From a virus (Duplodnaviria > Caudoviricetes): 62,449 bases of DNA. The position numbers and the translations under genes were made by a program. The stretch spans positions 1 to 62,449 of the IMG/VR virus record IMGVR_UViG_3300020442_001526; one strand, 5' to 3'. The notes below the pieces were generated by a model. That model was not told the DNA's origin. It did not search any database and saw only the letters and a program-made list of their open reading frames with translations. This document shows positions 10,425 through 47,018 of the stretch, piece after piece. Numbering within the stretch: the stretch's first letter is position 1; the number at the start of each line of letters is the position of its first letter.

Positions 10425-10500
10425 TGGAGCCACCTGTCAGATTCGAACTGACGACCTATGGTTTACAAAACCATTGCTCTACCAACTGAGCTAAGGTGGC
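10425..10500 (-). tRNA. tRNA-Thr (TGT)
   Basis: 76-nt cloverleaf GCCACCTTAGCTCAGTTGGTAGAGC...TGT...GTTCGAATC...CCA. Confidence 0.97.
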
Positions 10501-10529
10501 AAATTCTAATACTATTTATTTAAAAAAAC

Positions 10530-10604
<75 letters not shown>

Positions 10605-23157: not shown

Positions 23158-23421
23158 TTAGCCAGCAAATACGGTACCTGATCCTGTTGCGGAATGTCCA
23201 CAACTGGCATTATCGCCTTTTCTGACTACAGGTTGCCCTTCTGCAAAAACAGTTCCACTAGCACTTACCATTGTAGCAGAAACGTGGGGTGGGTCTCCGT
23301 GTGGGGAAACATTATCATTGATTACAGAAGTTATGGAACCTTCTGTAAGTACAGTAGGTGCGCCAGGACCCAAAATAGTTCCTACTGCATTGTCAGTTAA
23401 TACTCTAGTTACACCTGGCAT
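23158..23421 (-). CDS. PAAR-repeat spike tip protein (T4 gp5.4-like)
   Basis: PH..PPH, SGTVFAEGQPVVRKGD.ASCGH, GSGTVFAG. Confidence 0.9.
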   Translation of the reverse strand: MPGVTRVLTDNAVGTILGPGAPTVLTEGSITSVINDNVSPHGDPPHVSATMVSASGTVFAEGQPVVRKGDNASCGHSATGSGTVFAG

Positions 23422-23961: not shown

Positions 23962-23989
23962 AGAAAAGGGTCGTTGCCGACCCTTTTCT
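23962..23989. terminator. intrinsic terminator hairpin AGAAAAGGGTCG-TTGC-CGACCCTTTTCT
   Basis: 12-bp inverted repeat just downstream of the YRG-peptide gene. Confidence 0.85.
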
Positions 23990-24011: not shown

Positions 24012-24176
24012 TTACGCAACCCATTTAACACCGCGGTATGTGCCGCTAGATGCTTTAATGGACTTTTGTGCGTAAATAGGATCATGTTTTGTTCCTCGGT
24101 AGATACCGCCCTTTGCAGTTGACTGTTCGGGTTTAATATCAGCGGGATTGTACTTGATACCTCTGTAAAAGTTCAT
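24012..24176 (-). CDS. 54-aa DUF4278-like peptide with three YRG repeats
   Basis: MNFYRGIKYNPADIKPEQSTAKGGIYRGTKHDPIYAQKSIKASSGTYRGVKWVA; GAGGAGG RBS; not in the ORF track. Confidence 0.85.
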   Translation of the reverse strand: MNFYRGIKYNPADIKPEQSTAKGGIYRGTKHDPIYAQKSIKASSGTYRGVKWVA

Positions 24177-24205
24177 GTCATCCTCCTCAATTAATTAAGT
24201 TAGAT

Positions 24206-24327
24206 GCGTTCCTTCGGTTACTGTCGGTCTCGTTCGGCGATTGCCTACTTGCTTGCCTATCTTTTCAGATAGAGGTTTTCAGGTTACCTACTTCCGTTCA
24301 CTGCTACATTTAGAGTGAATGAACGAT
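24206..24327 (-). ncRNA. glnA-type (glutamine-I) riboswitch with an extended P3 containing a second aptamer-like unit
   Basis: ATCGTTCA-TTCAC..GTGAA-CGGAAGTAGG...CCGAAGGAACGC; P1 CGTTC/GAACG; AGUA/GAA E-loop; upstream of a DUF4278-like ORF. Confidence 0.8.
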
Positions 24328-38748: not shown

Positions 38749-40437
38749 CTACTTTTTATTACGTCCTGACTTCATGTTGGCACACCAGTGATACATTTTT
38801 GACTTCTCACCACTGCTGTCTTTTGCTTTTTTGCGTAGACTTGTTACTGAACCTTTACAACTTGCACCTGCACGTTTTACTCTGCCTGGACGACTTTTAC
38901 CTTTCTTTTTGCCGTCAGCAAAATTTTCTATAATCTCTGCTGGAATTACATCTCTGCCAACACGTTTTGCTTGATACACTCTGTGAAAACCATCAAGTAT
39001 TGTTTTGCCATCTACATCTAACAGTATTGGTTCATCTAAATCAACACCTACATCTGGATCAACATCTATTACTCTACTAAAACGGTCATCATGTGCTTCG
39101 TCATCTAAGTCTGCTACTTTGACTTTGATTAGTTTGGTCTTTTTGCCTTTGATATAATCTTTAACAGCAGGATTTAGATTTCTTTCATCTAATTGTTCCA
39201 GTTCATCTATAAATGGTTGTGGGTCCATATCCTGATTTTCAAACTCATCTATAAAGTTTCTCAACTCCATTTGGTATGCTTTCTTTAAAATTTCAGGATC
39301 TTCGTTGCCAGTAAAATTACTAAGACCTTTATGAACTCTATTCATATTGTCATCAAAACCATGCTCTTCTTCTCTGTCGTGGGTCATATAGTCCCAAACA
39401 TCTTTGAGCATTTTAACACCATTTATATTTACATACTCTCTTTTTATATAAGTGCCTGGAAAATTAATAACTTCTGCTTCTGACATTTTAGATTTTAGTA
39501 AATCTTTAAAATAGTTTTCCTGCATTACTGCTCTGTCACTTGTTTTATCTTTGAATACATCCATTACTTTTTCTATGTCTGCGTCAACTATAATTGCAGG
39601 AACACGTTTAATACCTAGTATATTAGCGGCATCATATCTATGATGACCATTTATCAAGTATCCTCTTCTATCTAGAATAAAAGGTCTGTCTGCTTTTTTA
39701 AGAAATACGTCTTCTGCTTTTTTACTTAATCCATCTACACGTTGAGTTTGTACATGTTTAATTTTATCTATACTGATTGTACCTTCTTTGTATTTTAAAT
39801 CTGATTTATCTAAATGTTTTCTTCTAATTTGTGGCAATTGGTTTCTATCAAAATGTTTATCACTAACACTTCTACTATAACTTTCTTCTATGCCTTTTCT
39901 TAAACGTATAACACCACAGGCAAGTCTTTCTCCTGCATTACCTGTTTTTAAACTTTCTTCATCTCCACCCAAACCTAAGTCATCTTCGTCTGCATGTATT
40001 ACCATTGCTCTGCCTACAACACTTCGGTCACCACTTAAATCAACACGTCTTGCAACAATTTTAAAACTAGCAATGCCTAATTCATTTGCAACAATATTGC
40101 CTAAGTCGCCTACATGCCCAATTGCTAAATCTCCATGGTCAACTCCGTCTGGATTGTAATGACCTCCAGCACTATCACAACCATCACTAAGGTCGCCAAA
40201 CTCATGAATATGTATTCCGTGTTTGCCAGGTGTAAGTCCTTTTATTTGTCCTCTGATTATTGTAGGTTTGTTTGGTTCTTGTTTTAAAACAATACCGCCT
40301 GATATATCACCTTCAACATGTTCTAATTGAACTACTGCTTTTATTATTTCTTCTGCTTCACTGATTGTGTTTAAAGACTCGCACTGGCAACTTTTTTCTT
40401 TTGTTCTAGGGCATTTTTTAAAATCTGTTATTCGCAT
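38749..40437 (-). CDS. sodC: Cu/Zn superoxide dismutase fused to two ParB/sulfiredoxin-like domains and a basic C-terminal module
   Basis: [37 protein letters not shown]; INGHHR and LDGFHR. Confidence 0.85.
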
Positions 40438-43400
40438 TATCTAATTGCATATTGTGGCGATGCTTTCATTTGGTCATCATTCCACGAAATGCCTCCTGTA
40501 ACTTCTACTTTGCCTTGAGCAATAGCCTTAATCATTTCATCTCTATTGTTAATAATATAATAAGACCTTGTATTACTGTTTATGAATAATATATTTTCTA
40601 CATTGTCTTCTATGTTATAACTTTCATATGCCAGACCTGTGTAGTAACTCCATAGTCTTTGCATAGATAATGTACCATCTTCATTAGGCATTTTAGCAAC
40701 AATTTTTTCAAAATCAGGCACACGTTTCCAACCAGGCATTATACCTTTTATAACACCTAATAATAATTCTGTGGTTTTCTTTTTGTCGCTATATGGCTCT
40801 AAAACTTCATCATTTAAAAATTGAATACCTTTTGCATTAAAATTATATCTACTTGCTTGTTTACCAGCGGCAGATGTGTATTTCATAAATCCTGGTTCTT
40901 TAGCGGCTTCAGATGGATTTTTATTTGGATTTAGTTCTCCAATTTTAGGATAAATCTTTTTGATACCTTTTTCCAAAGGTCCCCAACCATTCGTTCCCGA
41001 ACTTATACCTTTACTGTTTAATCTAGCACCATATATGGAATTACCTACTTTTCCGCTTTTCAATCTTTTAAAGCCACTGCCTTTTAATTCGTACATTACT
41101 CCATCAATTTCTAAGTCACCATGTGATTCTGCTTTTTTAGCCGGGTTACCAAATATTGCAAGTCCCACTTCTGCAGGACCATAGTTACCACTTGTAGTAC
41201 CACCTGGAATAAATTCAAAAATATCACCTTTGAAATAACTATCAAAAATGTCTAATACTTCTTTATCTAAATTTCGATTGATATGGTCATCTATTTTACC
41301 TTCTTTAGCGGATACCAATGCCTTAGTATCAATCAGTTCACCGTTCATTGCATGGGTTAATAATTTACCTAATGCAACTAAAGATACTTTTTCATCTTCT
41401 TCAATTCCGCTGATAATACTGTTTAACTTGTCTGCTATACTGTTTTGTACTTTATTAAAATTAGATGCTTCATATTTGTCATCTGCAATACCTTCTGCTT
41501 TTTTAACTAATGCAACTACCTGTTTCTTTAACTGAGTTTTTGCTTTACGCATATCTATTTCACGTTGCTCGCCACCCATTTTAATTGCTGTGTCTATATC
41601 AACTTCTCTAGCAGTATAACTCATAAGTTCTTTTTCTAATTGGTCTATTTTGAGTTCTAATTTTTTAAGTTCTACATTTAATGTATTACATTTATCCTTT
41701 AATTTTGGTTGCAAACATGCCTGCTGTATATCTCTTTGCAATATAGCATGCCTAACAACTTGAGTTCTAAAATCTGAAACAAGTTGAGCAGGTGCTTCTG
41801 ATAAAATACTTTCATTGAGTTTTACTTTAGATTTTACTTCTTCAGGTAATGCACTAACATAAAATCTTAAAATATTTCTAGCACATGCATCATCACCTGC
41901 TTCTGCTCTCAGATTTCTAAATGAATCCAACATAGCAGGAATAGGAATAGCCTGAAATGCCAACATTTGTTTTTTAAGATCACCTACAGGAAAATGGTCT
42001 GCTAGTAATTTATTGATAATTTCAATTTTATTAAAATCATTTACACTTTCTTTCGCCATCTTTGTTGCTGTTGCATACATAACTGCTTTAGCATCTTTAC
42101 CATAACGTTTTTCAAAATCACCTTTGTTTTTCTTCATGCCTTTAACATATTTTTCCTTATCTTTCTTTTCATCTTTTGTTAAAGGGCGTTCTAATACTTT
42201 AGAGTTTTCTAATATTTGTATTTGTTCTTCTAAAGATAATTTGTCAAACTTATCAAATACACTTTCTCTGGAAAGCATACTGACTCTGTCACGTTCTGCT
42301 CTTTGTTGTTGATTTGCATAAAATTGTCTGCCTCTTGCTAAGTGGCCTTGAAAATCATTTGGTTCTTCACCTGCTAATTTTTCTTTCATCATGCTTTGTA
42401 AAACAGCCTTTTTGAAATCTTCATCATTGTCTGGATTTATAAGAAAATCTACCAATTTGTTTACGTCGGGTCTCAATATATAATTTTGCATACCCGAATT
42501 CATCATCCTTTCAAAATCAATATATTTGGATCTGACTTTTTCGTAATCTGCTTCTGTGGTTGTATTGGATCCTGATTGATTATTTGATGAGGGTTTACTA
42601 TACAGGCTACTGACATCGTCGCCATCACTTCCGTCTGCATTCTTTCTAAAATAGTTTCCACCACTTACATTGTAACTCTTTTTGATGTAATCGTATGCCA
42701 TCTTGACTGCGGCGGCCCATCTTTCTGTGCCTATTGCTTTTGGATCTTTTGGACGCCAGTTGTGGTCACTATCGTATTGGTCGTAAACTCTTTTTAGTAA
42801 GTTTACACCTTGGTCATTTACTCCACGTTCTATTTTTAAATAGTCTGCTAAATTAGTCCAATTTGTTTTATCAGCAACATCAGCCGATGCGGCACCTTCC
42901 ATTCCTTCAACACCACCTGCTCTAATTAAACTTTCTACACTATTATGTTCTTTTGCAAGTTGTTTTTCAAGTGCTTTGGCTTTTTTGCTTAATTCAGGAT
43001 TATTGGCATGCCAAGCCGCTGATGCACTAAATTCAAAAGGTTCTCCATATGGGCCATTAATATCTTCTCTAGGAAGTATAGGATCATCTCCTAACCCTTT
43101 CATACCCTCTCTGCCATCACCGTTTTCTTCTGTGAATTTAACACCCACTTCTTGTAATGCATCTTTGATGGTTTTTCCTTGACCAAATACTGCATTAATA
43201 TTTGAAAATTTTGCTTTAAGTGTTTCAAAATCTGTCCTATAAATACTATCAAACTTTCTTTTAATAACTGTGGCTTTAGATATTCTCCAACTGGTAGGAT
43301 TTTTTTGCCTATAAGGTTCGGCAAGAACTTTTTCAGCCTCCTGCATCATAAAATAATGAGATGTTGGTATCAGTATAGCACCGTCATATTGAGATACATA

Positions 43401-46400
43401 GTTGCTTCTAGACCATGAAAAATATTCTTTTACATCATATTGTCCTAAGTCACCATCTTTTAATTTCTGTATTACTTCATTATTGATTAAAATATCACCA
43501 CCAAATGAAAAACCAGGAACTTCTGCTAAATGACTCGCCCCATGTTTTTTCATAAATGTTTTTTGTTTTTTATGCAAAACTTTTTTCTGAGCAATATCAT
43601 CTGCTTGACTTGAAAAACCAACACTTTGTGAAAGTTTATCAAACCCTGTTAAAAATTGTTTAATTGCTGATACTCTGTCTTTGATAAGTTCTGGTAATCC
43701 ACCTATTTTATAAAATTTTGAACCGTGTCTATCTATATTTCTATAATAAGCATCAAATGATCCTCTAAGATAATTTTGAGTAATATCTTTTAATCTGCTT
43801 GCCATACTGCCGTCATATGGATCGTCATTATCCATTTCTCCTCTAACAATTTGATCTAACAAATTATTGATATTTGCTCTAGTTCTACGTTCAAGCCCAA
43901 AATATTCATACCCATCTGCTCTGTTTTCATGATCTGTACCTTTTAAATCAGGGAGTAGTTCATCTATGTTATCTACGTAGGCATCCAAACTGTTTGCTTG
44001 AATTAATTCGTCCCATAATTTTGCAATTTTTCTTAACATGTCAACATATTGTCCCATGTTATCTTGCTTGATTCTATCCAACTCATCCCAACGAAGCCTC
44101 ATGTTTTGCATCATTTTGCTGAGAGAATTTTCAATATAATTATCATCACCAGTTCTATCAGGGTTATGACCTTTTCCAACTGGGTGATTCCATTCTGGGT
44201 ACTTGCTTAAATAAGTTTTAAGTTTTTCAAATTCTTTTTTAATAACTGGATGCCCAGGTATAAAACTAAAAGCATTTTCTCTATTTGCAATTATTTGATA
44301 AAAATCTTTATATTCTCTAGTAACAGTTCTGCCTTTTAACTCTTCTAATTCTCTTGTTACTTGGTTGTCTTCTTGATCCATCCCTTTTGCTTTTGCAATT
44401 ACTTGTGCTAATTCCTCAAGTTTTTTTGAATCTTTAAAATCATCACTGTGAACAAAATTCCACATGCCTTTTATTATTGCTTCTGTATCTGGGCCTGATA
44501 AAAATTCTGGTGCTTGTATTATTTCTTTTTTAAACAATCTGTCTACACCATTCTTTAATCTACTAATTTTTAATTTAGGTTCTAGTCTACTACTATCCCT
44601 TGAGTTTCCAAAATGTAATGCATCTTTATTTTGAAGAATTAATTTACTTAACTCGTCTGAGGTCAATTTAAATCTAGGAAGTGTTTTTCTTAAAGCACCT
44701 ATTAATCTAACTGATACAGGTTTTCTGTTTTGATTTTGATTCAAATCATATCCTGCTTGTCCAATTGCTACAGACAATCTATCTTGAGCATTTTTCAAAC
44801 TTTGTTTTGCCCGTTCGCTAGGTGCTGTCCTCTCTGGTTCTAAATAACCTCTAAGTGGCTCTTGCTCTTCTAATGCTTCTCCCATCCAACTTGGATCTCT
44901 ACCAGTGTCCTTTTTAAATTGTGCAATACTTTGTTTCCATTTTTTATCTGCATCAGGTTGACTTAATTTTTCATATTCGTTGATATAATGAAACGCCGCA
45001 TTCAGTTTATCCATAGTGTCTAAGTAATGGTCTTTACCAAACATGTCTTTTAATGCATCAATTAAAGGATCATCAAGTCTTTCATCTTTTCCTCTTTCAA
45101 TTGTATCAGGATCAAGTTCATCTATTTTTCTTAAAATCCTAAACAAAGCATTTGCATAATCTTTAGAATATAATTTGTCACTGGCTGAGGCATTTAATGT
45201 TGTTGCATATCTAATAACTGCCTTAGTTGCTGTCTCAAATTCTCTGTGATAATCATCACCTCCACCTATTCTAAATTCTATAAGTTGATTGTTTGTGTCC
45301 CTATCATTTTGATCTTTAAAATTAATTGAACTAAATTTGTCTCTACTAATACCTTTAGATAAAATCTTTTCTATATCTTTGATATTTTTGACATTATCAG
45401 GATTTGATTTAAGTTCTGCGGCTCTTTTTTGCAATTGATCCATTTGGCTTTTAGCATAACTGTTTCTTGCTCTACCAAACGTGCTTAACAGATATTTGTC
45501 GCCTAATAAAACAGCAAGTTTGACAGGGTTAATTTCTTCTCTTTCTTCGCTGTCAATACTCATAGTAACATGTAAACCAGTTGAACTGTTTGTTTCCACA
45601 CCCTCATTATCAAAAAATTCAAATAATGATTTCATTTCTTCCAACATTGCTTTTGGTGTTTTGTATACCGGAGAAATAATTTCTGCTCCAGTGCCGCCAC
45701 TTGCTTCAATACTACTATCTGTTTCTACACGCCAAAAACTATTATTAGAACCATAATTGCTGTGATAATCACCATATTCTACATCTGTAAATTTAGAGTT
45801 TTTGTCTGCCCATCTTTCAATAATTTCAGAAACTTCTCGAACTCCGCCTCCTGAGCTAGGATTAGTTAAATAAATATCAAATTCATACAAACAACTATGC
45901 CAACTTCCATATTCTGAGTTAGCCCAATGGTCCATATCGTAGTCGTCTCTCGCAACCTCGACTGCTCTATCCATTGCTTCACCGCTATCTCTGATTTCGT
46001 CAGCAAGGTATTCTCTAAATTCATCTAGCAATTCTTCTTCAACATATTGACGACCCCAGTTCAAAAAATCCCAGTCTTCGTACTCATCATGTTGATCTTC
46101 TGGTAAATCATCTAATATTCTTTCTTTGTAATCTTCTATGTCATCTTCGCTGATTTCGTCTTCTATATATGAATTAAGGTAGTGTTCGTCTTCTTCTCTT
46201 TCGGATACCATTTCCCAAATAATATCACTTTCATCTTCTGATGCTTTATCTAAGATAAATTCTTCGTATGCATCTTCTATATTTTGAACACCACTACTAC
46301 CTTCTTGGTCACGAACAAAATCTTCAATGTCATACCAGTTGTATTCGTACAACCAATCTTCATCTTCGTCATCTGGGTAAATATTATCCCAAACTGTTTC

Positions 46401-47018
46401 TGCTTCAAATCCACATTTGATTGCTGAGTTTAATGCTGAAGTGGCTATTTCTTTTTTGTTGAAATTTATTTCGAATATTGCTTCTTCGCCTTGTTCACGT
46501 AATTTGAATTTTCTAGAAAGTTTCTTTAATTTCTTTTTAATCTTGTTTGCTTTGGCTAATTTTAATTTTGAAGATGACGATTTATTTAATTTTCCTAGTT
46601 TACTTTCTTCTACATCTACATATACTTCATCTTGAGGATCTACTAAAGTGTATTCACCTTTTGGGTCTTGTACTACAACTTTATCTGGGTTTGGGTTGTC
46701 TCCTACTTTGCTGACAACTTTACCTAAGACTTCTCCTTTTTCATCTTTGTATTCTGAGTCTACTTCTATTTCACCTGCTTTGATAGGAGTAAATTTTGGT
46801 TGTTCTTGTTCTGGCTCTTTAACATCTAGTCCAGGTGTAGTTGTAGGACTGCCTAAATCTTTTTTGGGTGGAGTTTTTTTGTTTACAGTAGGACTTTTTA
46901 CAGCATTTGCTTTAGCATTTGAACCCGTTTGTTGTTGTGATGTAGGCGTACTTGCGCCTGGCTTCATACCATACTCTGTTAAAACAGACTCTAATGTTCT
47001 AACGTCTTTAAATTTCAT
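40437..47018 (-). CDS. 2193-aa modular protein with amidoligase (COOH-NH2 ligase) domain and C-terminal PD-(D/E)XK-like domain
   Basis: GFEAE, VETDSSI, AEIISP, STGLHVT, SINF, IEFR; GPAE...GDLEIDG..YELKG. Confidence 0.75.

Follow-up and report, generated by a model that had tools for sequence, protein, structure and literature searches.

Few riboswitches are as small, or bind their ligand as weakly, as those for glutamine, and the locus studied here raises the question of what a 61-nt element is doing inside the P3 helix of one of them. The locus lies in a 62,449-nucleotide stretch of viral DNA, which was analysed as a whole and is referred to below as the window. In an initial annotation, it had been proposed that the window encodes a glutamine riboswitch of the glnA type, that its P3 does not end in a loop, and that a second aptamer-like unit, in an arrangement not known to have been described, is nested inside this helix. 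In this study, we revisited the identity of the outer aptamer, the fold, conservation and distribution of the insert, and the gene that follows it, and we weigh here what the insert might contribute to the riboswitch.

Results

Identity of the outer aptamer

Using cmscan, a single match to RF01739, the Rfam glutamine riboswitch model, was found in the window at 24327..24203 on the minus strand, with 50.4 bits (E 4.3e-08; gathering score 35), and no match to RF01704 was found in the window. In the RF01739 alignment, each of the 53 model positions is used, and 65 nt within the P3 loop are bypassed via a local end. Ten homolog loci score between 38.4 and 53.4 bits with the same model, and no overlapping ORF of 40 aa or more was found across the riboswitch element. 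The Rfam match reaches 24203, which is 3 nt past the start coordinate of 24206 given in the initial annotation. In the numbering used here, RNA position 1 is window position 24327 on the minus strand, so that a window coordinate equals 24328 minus the RNA position. The parts of the element are as follows (RNA positions in brackets).

24203..24327, minus strand: whole type-1 glutamine riboswitch aptamer with the P3 insert (1-125), as predicted from the RF01739 match of 50.4 bits
24321..24325, minus strand: P1 5' strand CGUUC (3-7), pairing with GAACG 117-121; Rfam alignment
24297..24319, minus strand: P2 hairpin (9-31), in which UUCAC 9-13 pairs with GUGAA 27-31; Rfam alignment
24289..24296, minus strand: J2/3 and outer loop E 5' strand CGGAAGUA (32-39); Rfam alignment, contacts as in PMC6698751
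24283..24288, minus strand: outer P3 5' strand GGUAAC (40-45), pairing with 107-112 with one A.A mismatch
24274..24282, minus strand: internal loop 5' strand CU-GAAAACC (46-54), in which GAAAACCUC is kept in 57 of 58 family members among the matches listed
24256..24273, minus strand: hairpin A, UCUAUCU-GAAA-AGAUAGG (55-72); covariation, 65 versions
24251..24255, minus strand: linker CA followed by AGC (73-77); AGC is invariant and the linker varies (CA, UA, UU, AA, AU)
24232..24250, minus strand: arm B, with loop E AAGUA 78-82 / GAAC 93-96 around hairpin B GGC-AAUC-GCC 83-92; covariation, 50 versions
24222..24231, minus strand: GAG (97-99) and internal loop 3' strand ACCGACA (100-106); GAGACCGA in all 62 insert-bearing loci
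24216..24221, minus strand: outer P3 3' strand GUAACC (107-112); P3 partner-swap test
24206..24215, minus strand: outer loop E 3' strand GAAG (113-116), P1 3' strand GAACG (117-121) and linchpin C122; Rfam alignment and PMC6698751

The outer unit has the three-way junction of RF01739, with a 5-bp P1, a single A, the P2 hairpin and P3 attached via loop E (GGAAGUA / GAAG). Its core strings are CGGAAGUAGG at 32-41 and CCGAAGG at 111-117, and all of the strings listed in the initial annotation, in which no strand was named, are present on the minus strand. Across homologs, CGGAAGUA is invariant in 63 of 63 aligned sequences, save for one C-to-U change at its first base; the P2 sequence differs. 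In the solved type-1 structure the ligand is contacted by C1:G59, G2:C58 and G22 and is capped by a long-range G-C pair (PMC6698751), and at the sequence level these nucleotides are present in the window RNA as C3:G121, G4:C120, the triple-forming G33 and the linchpin pair G34-C122. Because every known glutamine-contact nucleotide is kept, the outer three-way junction is predicted to be the glutamine sensor, and we assign the outer aptamer to the type-1 (glnA) glutamine riboswitches, as a member of a long-P3 subclass. The glnA-type assignment made initially is thereby supported by the match to the Rfam glnA model, which holds even with 65 nt skipped, by the retained contacts and by the DUF4278 ORF that lies downstream (see below). 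When the whole viral record to which the window belongs was searched with RF01739, no match was obtained, although cmscan finds the element. As a whole-genome search of this kind misses the window's own copy, it was not used for calling absence, and the long-P3 form may be under-counted wherever a search makes no provision for the long insert.

Architecture of the P3 insert

As had been noted initially, P3 is not closed by a loop; it continues for 3-8 pairs and then opens into a conserved module of 61 nt (positions 46-106) that sits atop P3 and contains two covarying hairpins, namely hairpin A (core CUAUCU-GAAA-AGAUAG at 56-71) and the loop-E-capped hairpin B, which is part of the string GCAAGUA-GGC-AAUC-GCC-GAACG at 76-97 and is referred to, together with its loop E, as arm B. 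The AGUA/GAA element, which we take to be a loop-E (bulged-G) motif, is the same in the outer core and in arm B. We infer that arm B is built from a C-G pair, an optional U-A pair, an A.C pair, the AGUA/GAA loop E and hairpin B. The optional pair is an observed feature of the family: among 86 sequences, 63 lack both the U that may follow AGC and the A that may follow GAAC, 23 have both, and none has one of the two alone; the two bases are an extra U-A pair, inserted beneath the inner loop E. In two sequences, the flanking A.C is switched to G.A.

On its P3 side, the module begins as an irregular stem, in which the invariant 5'-GA/5'-GA likely forms tandem G.A pairs (G48.A104 and A49.G103), followed by an AAAC/ACC loop. 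The two bases that flank this stretch, one preceding GAAAACC and one following ACCGA, can pair in 54 of 86 sequences (U-A 29, G-C 25, G.A 17, U.C 10, A.C 5). Two models are possible for the inner junction. In one of them, CUC 54-56 pairs with GAG 97-99, and the topology would then be like that of the outer aptamer, with a helix, a hairpin, a GG linker and a loop E carrying a hairpin. The other extends the base of hairpin A by pairing UC 55-56 with GG 71-72, and it also joins C77 to G97. Since all bases concerned are invariant, covariation cannot choose between the two models. The same holds for the candidate long-range pairs, GG71-72 with CC101-102 and CGG32-34 with CCG101-103 (RNAalifold), which involve invariant bases throughout and are beyond the reach of covariation; the CGG:CCG pairing comprises 3 bp, is near-invariant (a single C-to-U change leaves U.G) and could coexist with P3 only as a pseudoknot. 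Nothing was found that could serve as a tertiary partner of the module, and the loops of P2, hairpin A and hairpin B all vary.

Two other readings of this region were considered and rejected. The GAG-ACC-GA internal loop has the bulged-strand look of a kink-turn, but it is no standard kink-turn, since 4 nt lie between the opposing GA and the CUC strand. It could also be imagined that GG-UAA-CC followed by UGAAAACC forms a mini-P3 that mimics a short aptamer; however, CCU is found at that place in only 31 of 63 sequences.

Conservation and covariation of the insert

Viral contigs were searched with sequence patterns drawn from the outer aptamer or from the insert. A pattern made from the outer motifs only gave 65 loci, 62 of which have the insert and three of which are ordinary tandem aptamers; GAGACCGA is present in all 62 insert-bearing loci. 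A pattern made from three inner motifs gave 106 loci; 105 of them sit within a complete glnA aptamer, the last one is truncated at the end of its contig, and in this set the module was never seen outside a glnA aptamer. As these patterns force some of the motifs to be invariant, an additional search was done with only the 3' inner motif and the outer 3' strand. This search gave at least 120 matches; the 92 distinct sequences among the matches listed comprise 33 chance or truncated matches and 59 family members, one of which (L456) also proved to be a chance match, leaving 58. Among these listed matches GAAAACCUC is exact in 57 of the 58 family members and the remaining one has GACAACCUC, even though this motif was not fixed in the search. 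A looser outer pattern, GGAAGTAN{48,78}GAAGGAACG, was discarded as too permissive, the matches listed in genomes and viral contigs being mostly due to chance.

Since MAFFT alignments misplace the stems, pairs were counted from fixed sequence anchors in 63 distinct RNAs and not from an alignment or covariance model, so that the counts do not come from an alignment fitted to the pairing. At depths 3-7 of hairpin A, 94-100 % of the sequences are paired, compared with 49-74 % when the partners are shuffled, and 4-7 pair types are seen per position. For hairpin B, 98 %, 100 % and 90 % are paired at depths 1-3, compared with approximately 50 % with shuffled partners. These homologs share ancestry, and the counts are hence not counts of independent events. 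In a MAFFT alignment analysed with RNAalifold, 11-27 sequences have double compensatory changes at six pairs. Across 86 RNAs, hairpin A occurs in 65 distinct versions and hairpin B in 50, and even near-identical RNAs differ by whole-stem swaps, as for GGC/GCC in the window and CCC/GGG in L004. The outer P3 behaves in the same manner: over 37 versions, a strand pairs with its own partner at a mean of -3.6 kcal/mol and with swapped partners at -1.5 kcal/mol, and in 34 of the 37 versions the own partner equals or surpasses the median of the swapped ones. Beyond the covarying helices, approximately 31 nucleotides do not vary among the phage copies and those of SAR86 bacteria (see below). The insert is a conserved, folded module under selection and not noise, and the strong covariation of both inner hairpins bears out the fold that had been drawn for them.

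Comparison of the inner module with a glutamine aptamer

The initial annotation had described the inner arm as a mirror of the outer core and as part of a second aptamer-like unit. In part, this description holds, as an inner loop E (AGUA/GAA) stacked on the covarying hairpin B is present and the layout and topology resemble those of the outer core. The GGC/GCC stem that had been seen as a mirror of the outer P3 is, however, not conserved, with 50 distinct hairpin sequences in the family. When the insert alone (24216-24288) was searched with cmscan at E<=10, no match to RF01739 or RF01704 was found, and the only match to any family was a serC leader hairpin of 11 bits, which is a chance match. 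The only candidate for an inner closing helix is C54-U55-C56 / G97-A98-G99, which has 3 bp compared with 5 bp in the outer aptamer. At its second pair, a U:A takes the place of the glutamine-contacting G:C of the outer aptamer (the equivalent of G2:C58; PMC6698751). The inner linker consists of GG, two variable nucleotides and AGC(U), 7-8 nt in total, as opposed to the CGG that joins directly in the outer core. A tandem riboswitch requires two complete aptamers, and the window has one RF01739 match. Because of the missing model match, the 3-bp helix, the U:A pair and the 7-8 nt linker, the inner module does not, judged by its sequence, qualify as an independent glutamine aptamer.

Downstream gene and a predicted mode of control

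The following features lie downstream of the aptamer.

24182..24188, minus strand: Shine-Dalgarno-like GAGGAGG, found by sequence, 18 nt after the aptamer
24012..24176, minus strand: putatively regulated ORF of 54 aa with three YRG repeats; Pfam DUF4278 with 28.7 bits (cut-off 25.3), phrog_5049
23962..23989, strand not assigned: terminator-like 12-bp hairpin after the ORF, scored on the plus strand, with a U run following on the minus strand

A YRG-repeat ORF is found downstream in 67 of 67 distinct viral regions (61 in a first pass and six on re-examination). Searching with a single YRG protein gave three loci, all on contigs that were already among those found. Two types of leader follow the same module: in the window and its closest relatives there is a short A/U-rich linker, and in most of the others a further conserved element, for which no Rfam match was found at E<=0.1. 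In the same contig pool, tandem canonical aptamers precede other small ORFs or an ORF with a hydrophobic, membrane-protein-like start. Type-1 glutamine riboswitches generally lie ahead of nitrogen-related genes, typically of DUF4278 (IF17-like) ones, and the DUF4278 ORF of the window fits this pattern. In cyanobacteria, DUF4278 genes are placed under short-P3 aptamers in 25 of 28 genomes (PMC6212724).

In the predicted minimum-energy fold, the CAUCU stretch just 3' of P1, to which the linchpin C belongs, is base-paired to AGGAUG in the Shine-Dalgarno region. A sigma-70-like promoter with a -10 box overlapping the start of the aptamer was also considered and set aside, as one match is fewer than the mean of 1.8 obtained with shuffled sequences. 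Gene control is probably translational, according to this folding model. Binding of glutamine would stabilize P1 and the linchpin pair, CAUCU would thus be withdrawn from the Shine-Dalgarno region, and the latter would be freed. Such a step would resemble the ON-type mechanism that has been proposed for gifB (PMC6212724).

Genome setting and distribution

The window is a 62-kb fragment with a G+C content of 33.7 %, and the viral record is estimated to be 21 % complete. Its genes include nrdA, nrdB, a DnaB-like helicase, a primase, a PAAR protein and an ORF of 2193 aa. In a tblastn search, the best identity of NrdB was 61 %, to jumbo phages of enterobacteria and Xanthomonas, which is uninformative as to the host. 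Based on this gene set and on the fact that NrdB is at most 61 % identical to the jumbo-phage proteins, the window comes from a large marine phage and not from a typical T4-like cyanophage. Neither the leader nor the 125-nt RNA gave a blastn match at 1e-5 in the INPHARED phage collection, and the four matches seen there at E<=10 were all due to chance. It has been reported that glutamine riboswitches adjoin two-piece tmRNA genes in related marine phages (PMC9004378); no tmRNA was found by ARAGORN in the window or in 15 loci.

Among bacteria, the inner motif pattern was found, with one copy each, in 35 out of 121 genomes sampled from the order to which a SAR86 metagenome-assembled genome belongs, and it was not found in any of 401 genomes of the cyanobacterial phylum or of 61 genomes from the order of a SAR116 genome. 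The genome sets are samples and many of the genomes are incomplete, so that these zeros mean 'not found' and not 'absent'. All of the 12 SAR86-order loci that were fetched have the full extended riboswitch followed by a YRG ORF of 52-54 aa. At one of them (L532), the gene order is rnc, era, cassette, recO, acpS, that is, a core chromosomal locus. We take the long-P3 variant to be native to SAR86-order bacteria and the cassette of the window to be of the SAR86 type and not of the cyanobacterial type. According to this scenario, the subclass, which is found chromosomally in SAR86-clade bacteria, would have been carried into large marine phages, including the one represented by the window. This gives a hint at the host of large uncultured phages and corrects the usual labelling of phage glnA RNAs, and it points to a putatively glutamine-controlled YRG protein in an abundant heterotroph.

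Discussion

What the module does

We favour the view, to which we would give a probability of roughly one half, that the module is a rigid, specifically folded extension of P3 that tunes folding or the response to ligand and that is perhaps descended from a nested copy of the aptamer. This reading is based on the behaviour of P3, which projects sideways from the glutamine pocket (PMC6698751) and is the arm that shifts most, and by a large amount, when ligand binds (PMC5393176). P3 is a plausible site for such a module also in that, on our reading, the sequences used for crystallization in PMC5393176 had a P3 loop that was longer than, and foreign to, the native one. As a rigid extension of this mobile arm, the module would modulate folding or response instead of sensing glutamine itself, and a nested aptamer may have been its ancestral form. 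The same module stands ahead of two different downstream leaders, an observation that we have counted for this reading. What counts against it is that the approximately 31 invariant nucleotides exceed the constraint that is usual for a passive strut, and a pocket or a tertiary or protein contact would fit them equally well.

The strongest form of the initial proposal would be that the module is a diverged second sensor nested in P3, which binds glutamine through altered contacts or binds another metabolite of nitrogen status and thereby provides cooperative or two-input control. We consider this unlikely, even though several features speak for it. With CUC/GAG, hairpin A, the invariant GG and AAGUA-hairpin B-GAAC, the layout matches the outer core; an invariant CC after GAG-A could serve as the counterpart of the outer linchpin C; and the number of invariant non-helical nucleotides is a constraint typical of a pocket. 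In addition, the viral contigs L311 and L405, which have the same P2, carry true tandem aptamers instead, and multi-aptamer designs therefore exist in the same gene pool. However, these tandem relatives precede genes other than YRG genes, and the insert by itself is recognised by neither of the two glutamine riboswitch models at E<=10. The possible closing helix is shorter than the 5 bp of P1, the G2:C58 equivalent has become U:A, and GG is 5-6 nucleotides further away from loop E. The closing helix and the linchpin analogue are without covariation support, their bases all being invariant. Were this reading nevertheless true, SAR86 bacteria and their phages would gate a YRG mini-protein by an aptamer-in-aptamer switch, and this would be a nested architecture that is undescribed for any riboswitch class within the literature searched.

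A role of the module in the expression platform seems rather improbable. In such a scheme, either CCUC (53-56) would act as an anti-Shine-Dalgarno sequence or the inner GAAC(G) would rival the outer GAACG for the 5' strand of P1. CCUC(Y) does complement GGAGG/GAGG before every downstream start codon, but the complementarity extends over just 4-5 bp and would be given by any CCUC, and in the window fold the Shine-Dalgarno region pairs with CAUCU beside P1 and not with the insert. In the minimum-energy folds, moreover, 5' UCGUUC takes the inner GAACGA as its partner (6 bp) and not the outer strand. These folds come from a program without loop E, which should hold the inner GAAC, and where the extra A is present (GAACAG; 23 of 86 sequences), only 4 bp of such an alternative P1 would be left; furthermore, that one module serves two different downstream leaders counts against this scheme. 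It is more doubtful still that the module is a protein site, for instance for the very basic YRG protein, which would then add autoregulation to glutamine sensing, or for a host or phage factor. Loop-E motifs are common sites of protein recognition, and the module contains one. The YRG gene always accompanies the module, in the 67 viral regions as well as in the 12 SAR86-order loci, and canonical and tandem aptamers from the same contig pool precede other genes. On the other hand, cyanobacterial DUF4278 genes have short-P3 aptamers (25 of 28 genomes; PMC6212724), and the insert motif turned up in none of the 401 cyanobacterial-phylum genomes; the association between module and YRG gene may hence reflect lineage rather than function, and YRG proteins are not known to bind RNA. 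The idea that the insert is neutral or selfish, without function and merely tolerated in a permissive loop, is hardly credible. It is true that the length of P3 is variable, with up to 23 paired columns per side drawn in the 2010 glnA alignment, and that the crystallization sequences printed in PMC5393176 carry, on our reading, a longer, non-native P3 loop. Yet the motifs stay invariant while all three helices turn over by compensatory changes, the insert occurs once per genome, at a constant position within a core locus of the chromosome, and it was never found outside a glnA aptamer.

Taken as a P3 extension, the module is of interest because one lineage has added to the ligand-moved arm of a minimal riboswitch 61 nt of RNA, with some 31 invariant non-helical nucleotides. 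A module that tunes affinity or folding would be an example of how a minimal aptamer can be adapted to another type of cell, and one that binds something would represent a nested two-sensor design.

Comparison with known systems

The nested form is not new to the public record, which, by the standard set in the initial annotation itself, essentially counts against the proposal made there. In Additional file 5 of Weinberg et al. 2010 (PMC2864571), marine-metagenome rows of the glnA alignment (glnA.sto) already bear the insert; the motif table of that study places glnA under RF01739. Within this file, GAAAACCUC occurs 18 times and GAGACCGA 27 times, at least one of the latter being in the alignment of another motif. 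The structure line of glnA.sto treats P3 as a long variable stem and leaves approximately 94 insert columns unpaired, and the consensus drawing has only P1, P2, P3, the E-loop and one tentative pair, with no module. Tandem arrangements are mentioned in the accessible parts of the main text, and the insertion is not mentioned there. A term search of Klahn et al. 2018 (PMC6212724) gave no mention of phage or of an insertion, two CaCoFold papers mention only loop E and a one-pair pseudoknot, and no description of the P3 module was found in a full-text literature search on the glutamine riboswitch/glnA motif. The long-P3 variant has thus long been in a public alignment, since 2010, and is undescribed in the literature searched.

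Glutamine-II RNAs (Downstream-peptide motif, RF01704) have a near-identical glutamine pocket and also precede small ORFs of the DUF4278 type (PMC6698751); however, their fold contains a pseudoknot and no P3, and RF01704 matches neither the window nor the insert. Closer in appearance are the tandem glnA riboswitches (PMC2864571; L008, L017, L305, L311, L405), which likewise have more than one aptamer-like unit per leader and some of which share the P2 sequence of the window; tandem loci were also found in SAR116, SAR86 and alphaproteobacteria (L207, L271, L236). In these, the units are serial and each scores with RF01739 (two matches in L207 and in L305), and the copies precede other genes, whereas the second unit in the window is nested and is not recognised by the model. 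A further possible analogy is the singlet glycine riboswitch, in which a degenerate, aptamer-like 'ghost' domain may support a single functional aptamer and not itself bind ligand; the ghost sits beside the aptamer, whereas the module described here is inside a helix.

The closest known system remains the type-1 glutamine riboswitch itself (RF01739), as exemplified by the Synechocystis gifB/IF17 leader (PMC6212724) and the crystal structure PDB 5DDP (PMC6698751; PMC5393176). The window RNA has the same junction of P1, P2, loop E and P3, the same ligand-contact and linchpin nucleotides and the same position in the leader of a DUF4278 gene. It differs in that its P3 bears a 61-nt module where the known type has a short loop, and in that the hosts of the long-P3 form are SAR86-order bacteria and large marine phages and not cyanobacteria.

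A predicted alternative pairing and the region 3' of the riboswitch

In the extended riboswitch, a type-1 glnA glutamine aptamer with a conserved 61-nt module in P3, the 5' UCGUUC of P1 is able to pair with the inner GAACGA over 6 bp, the real P1 having 5 bp, and minimum-energy folds of the window RNA predict this pairing:

24232-24236 with 24321-24326, minus strand: inner GAACGA with the P1 5' UCGUUC, from minimum-energy folds

Among the 86 homologs, which are distinct insert-bearing RNAs, 23 carry GAACAG, and their potential to pair with the P1 5' strand is reduced to 4 bp.

Most homologs (L001, L012, L016, L034 and most others, together with the SAR86-order bacterial loci L529-L540) have a conserved element, about 50 nt 3' of P1, that separates the extended riboswitch from the SD and consists, in this order, of GAGAAGGGUG, a covarying hairpin and UAUGUACGAAAUCGAAACGAAAACUGGAGG; an Rfam search of this element gave no match at E<=0.1. 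The window is without it and has a short A/U-rich linker in its place, which is also found in its closest relatives (L004, L094, L116, L088, L135 and L146). Elsewhere, the window carries these genes:

10425-10604, minus strand: two phage genes side by side, for tRNA-Thr(tgt) and tRNA-Glu(ttc)
23158-23421, minus strand: PAAR-motif protein gene on the strand of the YRG ORF (a 54-aa DUF4278 gene), two genes further downstream
38749-40437, minus strand: 562-aa ORF with a superoxide-dismutase-like part and a ParB-like nuclease part
40437-47018, minus strand: 2193-aa ORF, almost without family match

Detection of the long-P3 form and related glnA arrangements

The genome-scale RF01739 search of the window's own record returned no match; cmscan gave 50.4 bits for the element at 24203-24327. 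The first-look filter of the genome-scale search seems to miss aptamers with a long P3 insert, so that censuses made by that search would under-count this form.

A leader of another kind recurs on viral contigs, in which two degenerate glnA-like units, both without the P3 hairpin, stand in series (L295-L298, L300, L310, L314, L316, L322, L325, L329, L334, L337, L341, L352, L358, L359, L361, L366, L381, L388, L393, L396, L403, L404 and L408). The first unit ends in ...CGGAAGUAAGCCGAC..GGAACG, and the second has CGUUCA, a hairpin and CGCAAACGCCGACUGAAGGAACG in succession. At the four loci scanned (L296, L298, L359 and L393), such units scored 27-38 bits against RF01739, around the cut-off.

Canonical glnA aptamers in tandem are carried by marine heterotroph genomes, with 2-6 matches per genome (G002-G004); the tandem loci lie in a SAR116 genome (L207), where the ORF 3' of the tandem has a hydrophobic, membrane-protein-like start, an alphaproteobacterial genome (L236) and a SAR86 MAG (L271). 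On the viral contig L305, a tandem glnA pair is followed, about 220 nt further downstream, by a freshwater-2 RNA (RF02980, 64.7 bits, 717-804). Finally, an RF01739 match in the genome of a cyanobacterium, Scytonema (L206; G001:C111:6122-6213), spans 92 nt at 48.3 bits; it exceeds the model by about 40 nt and is a further length variant.
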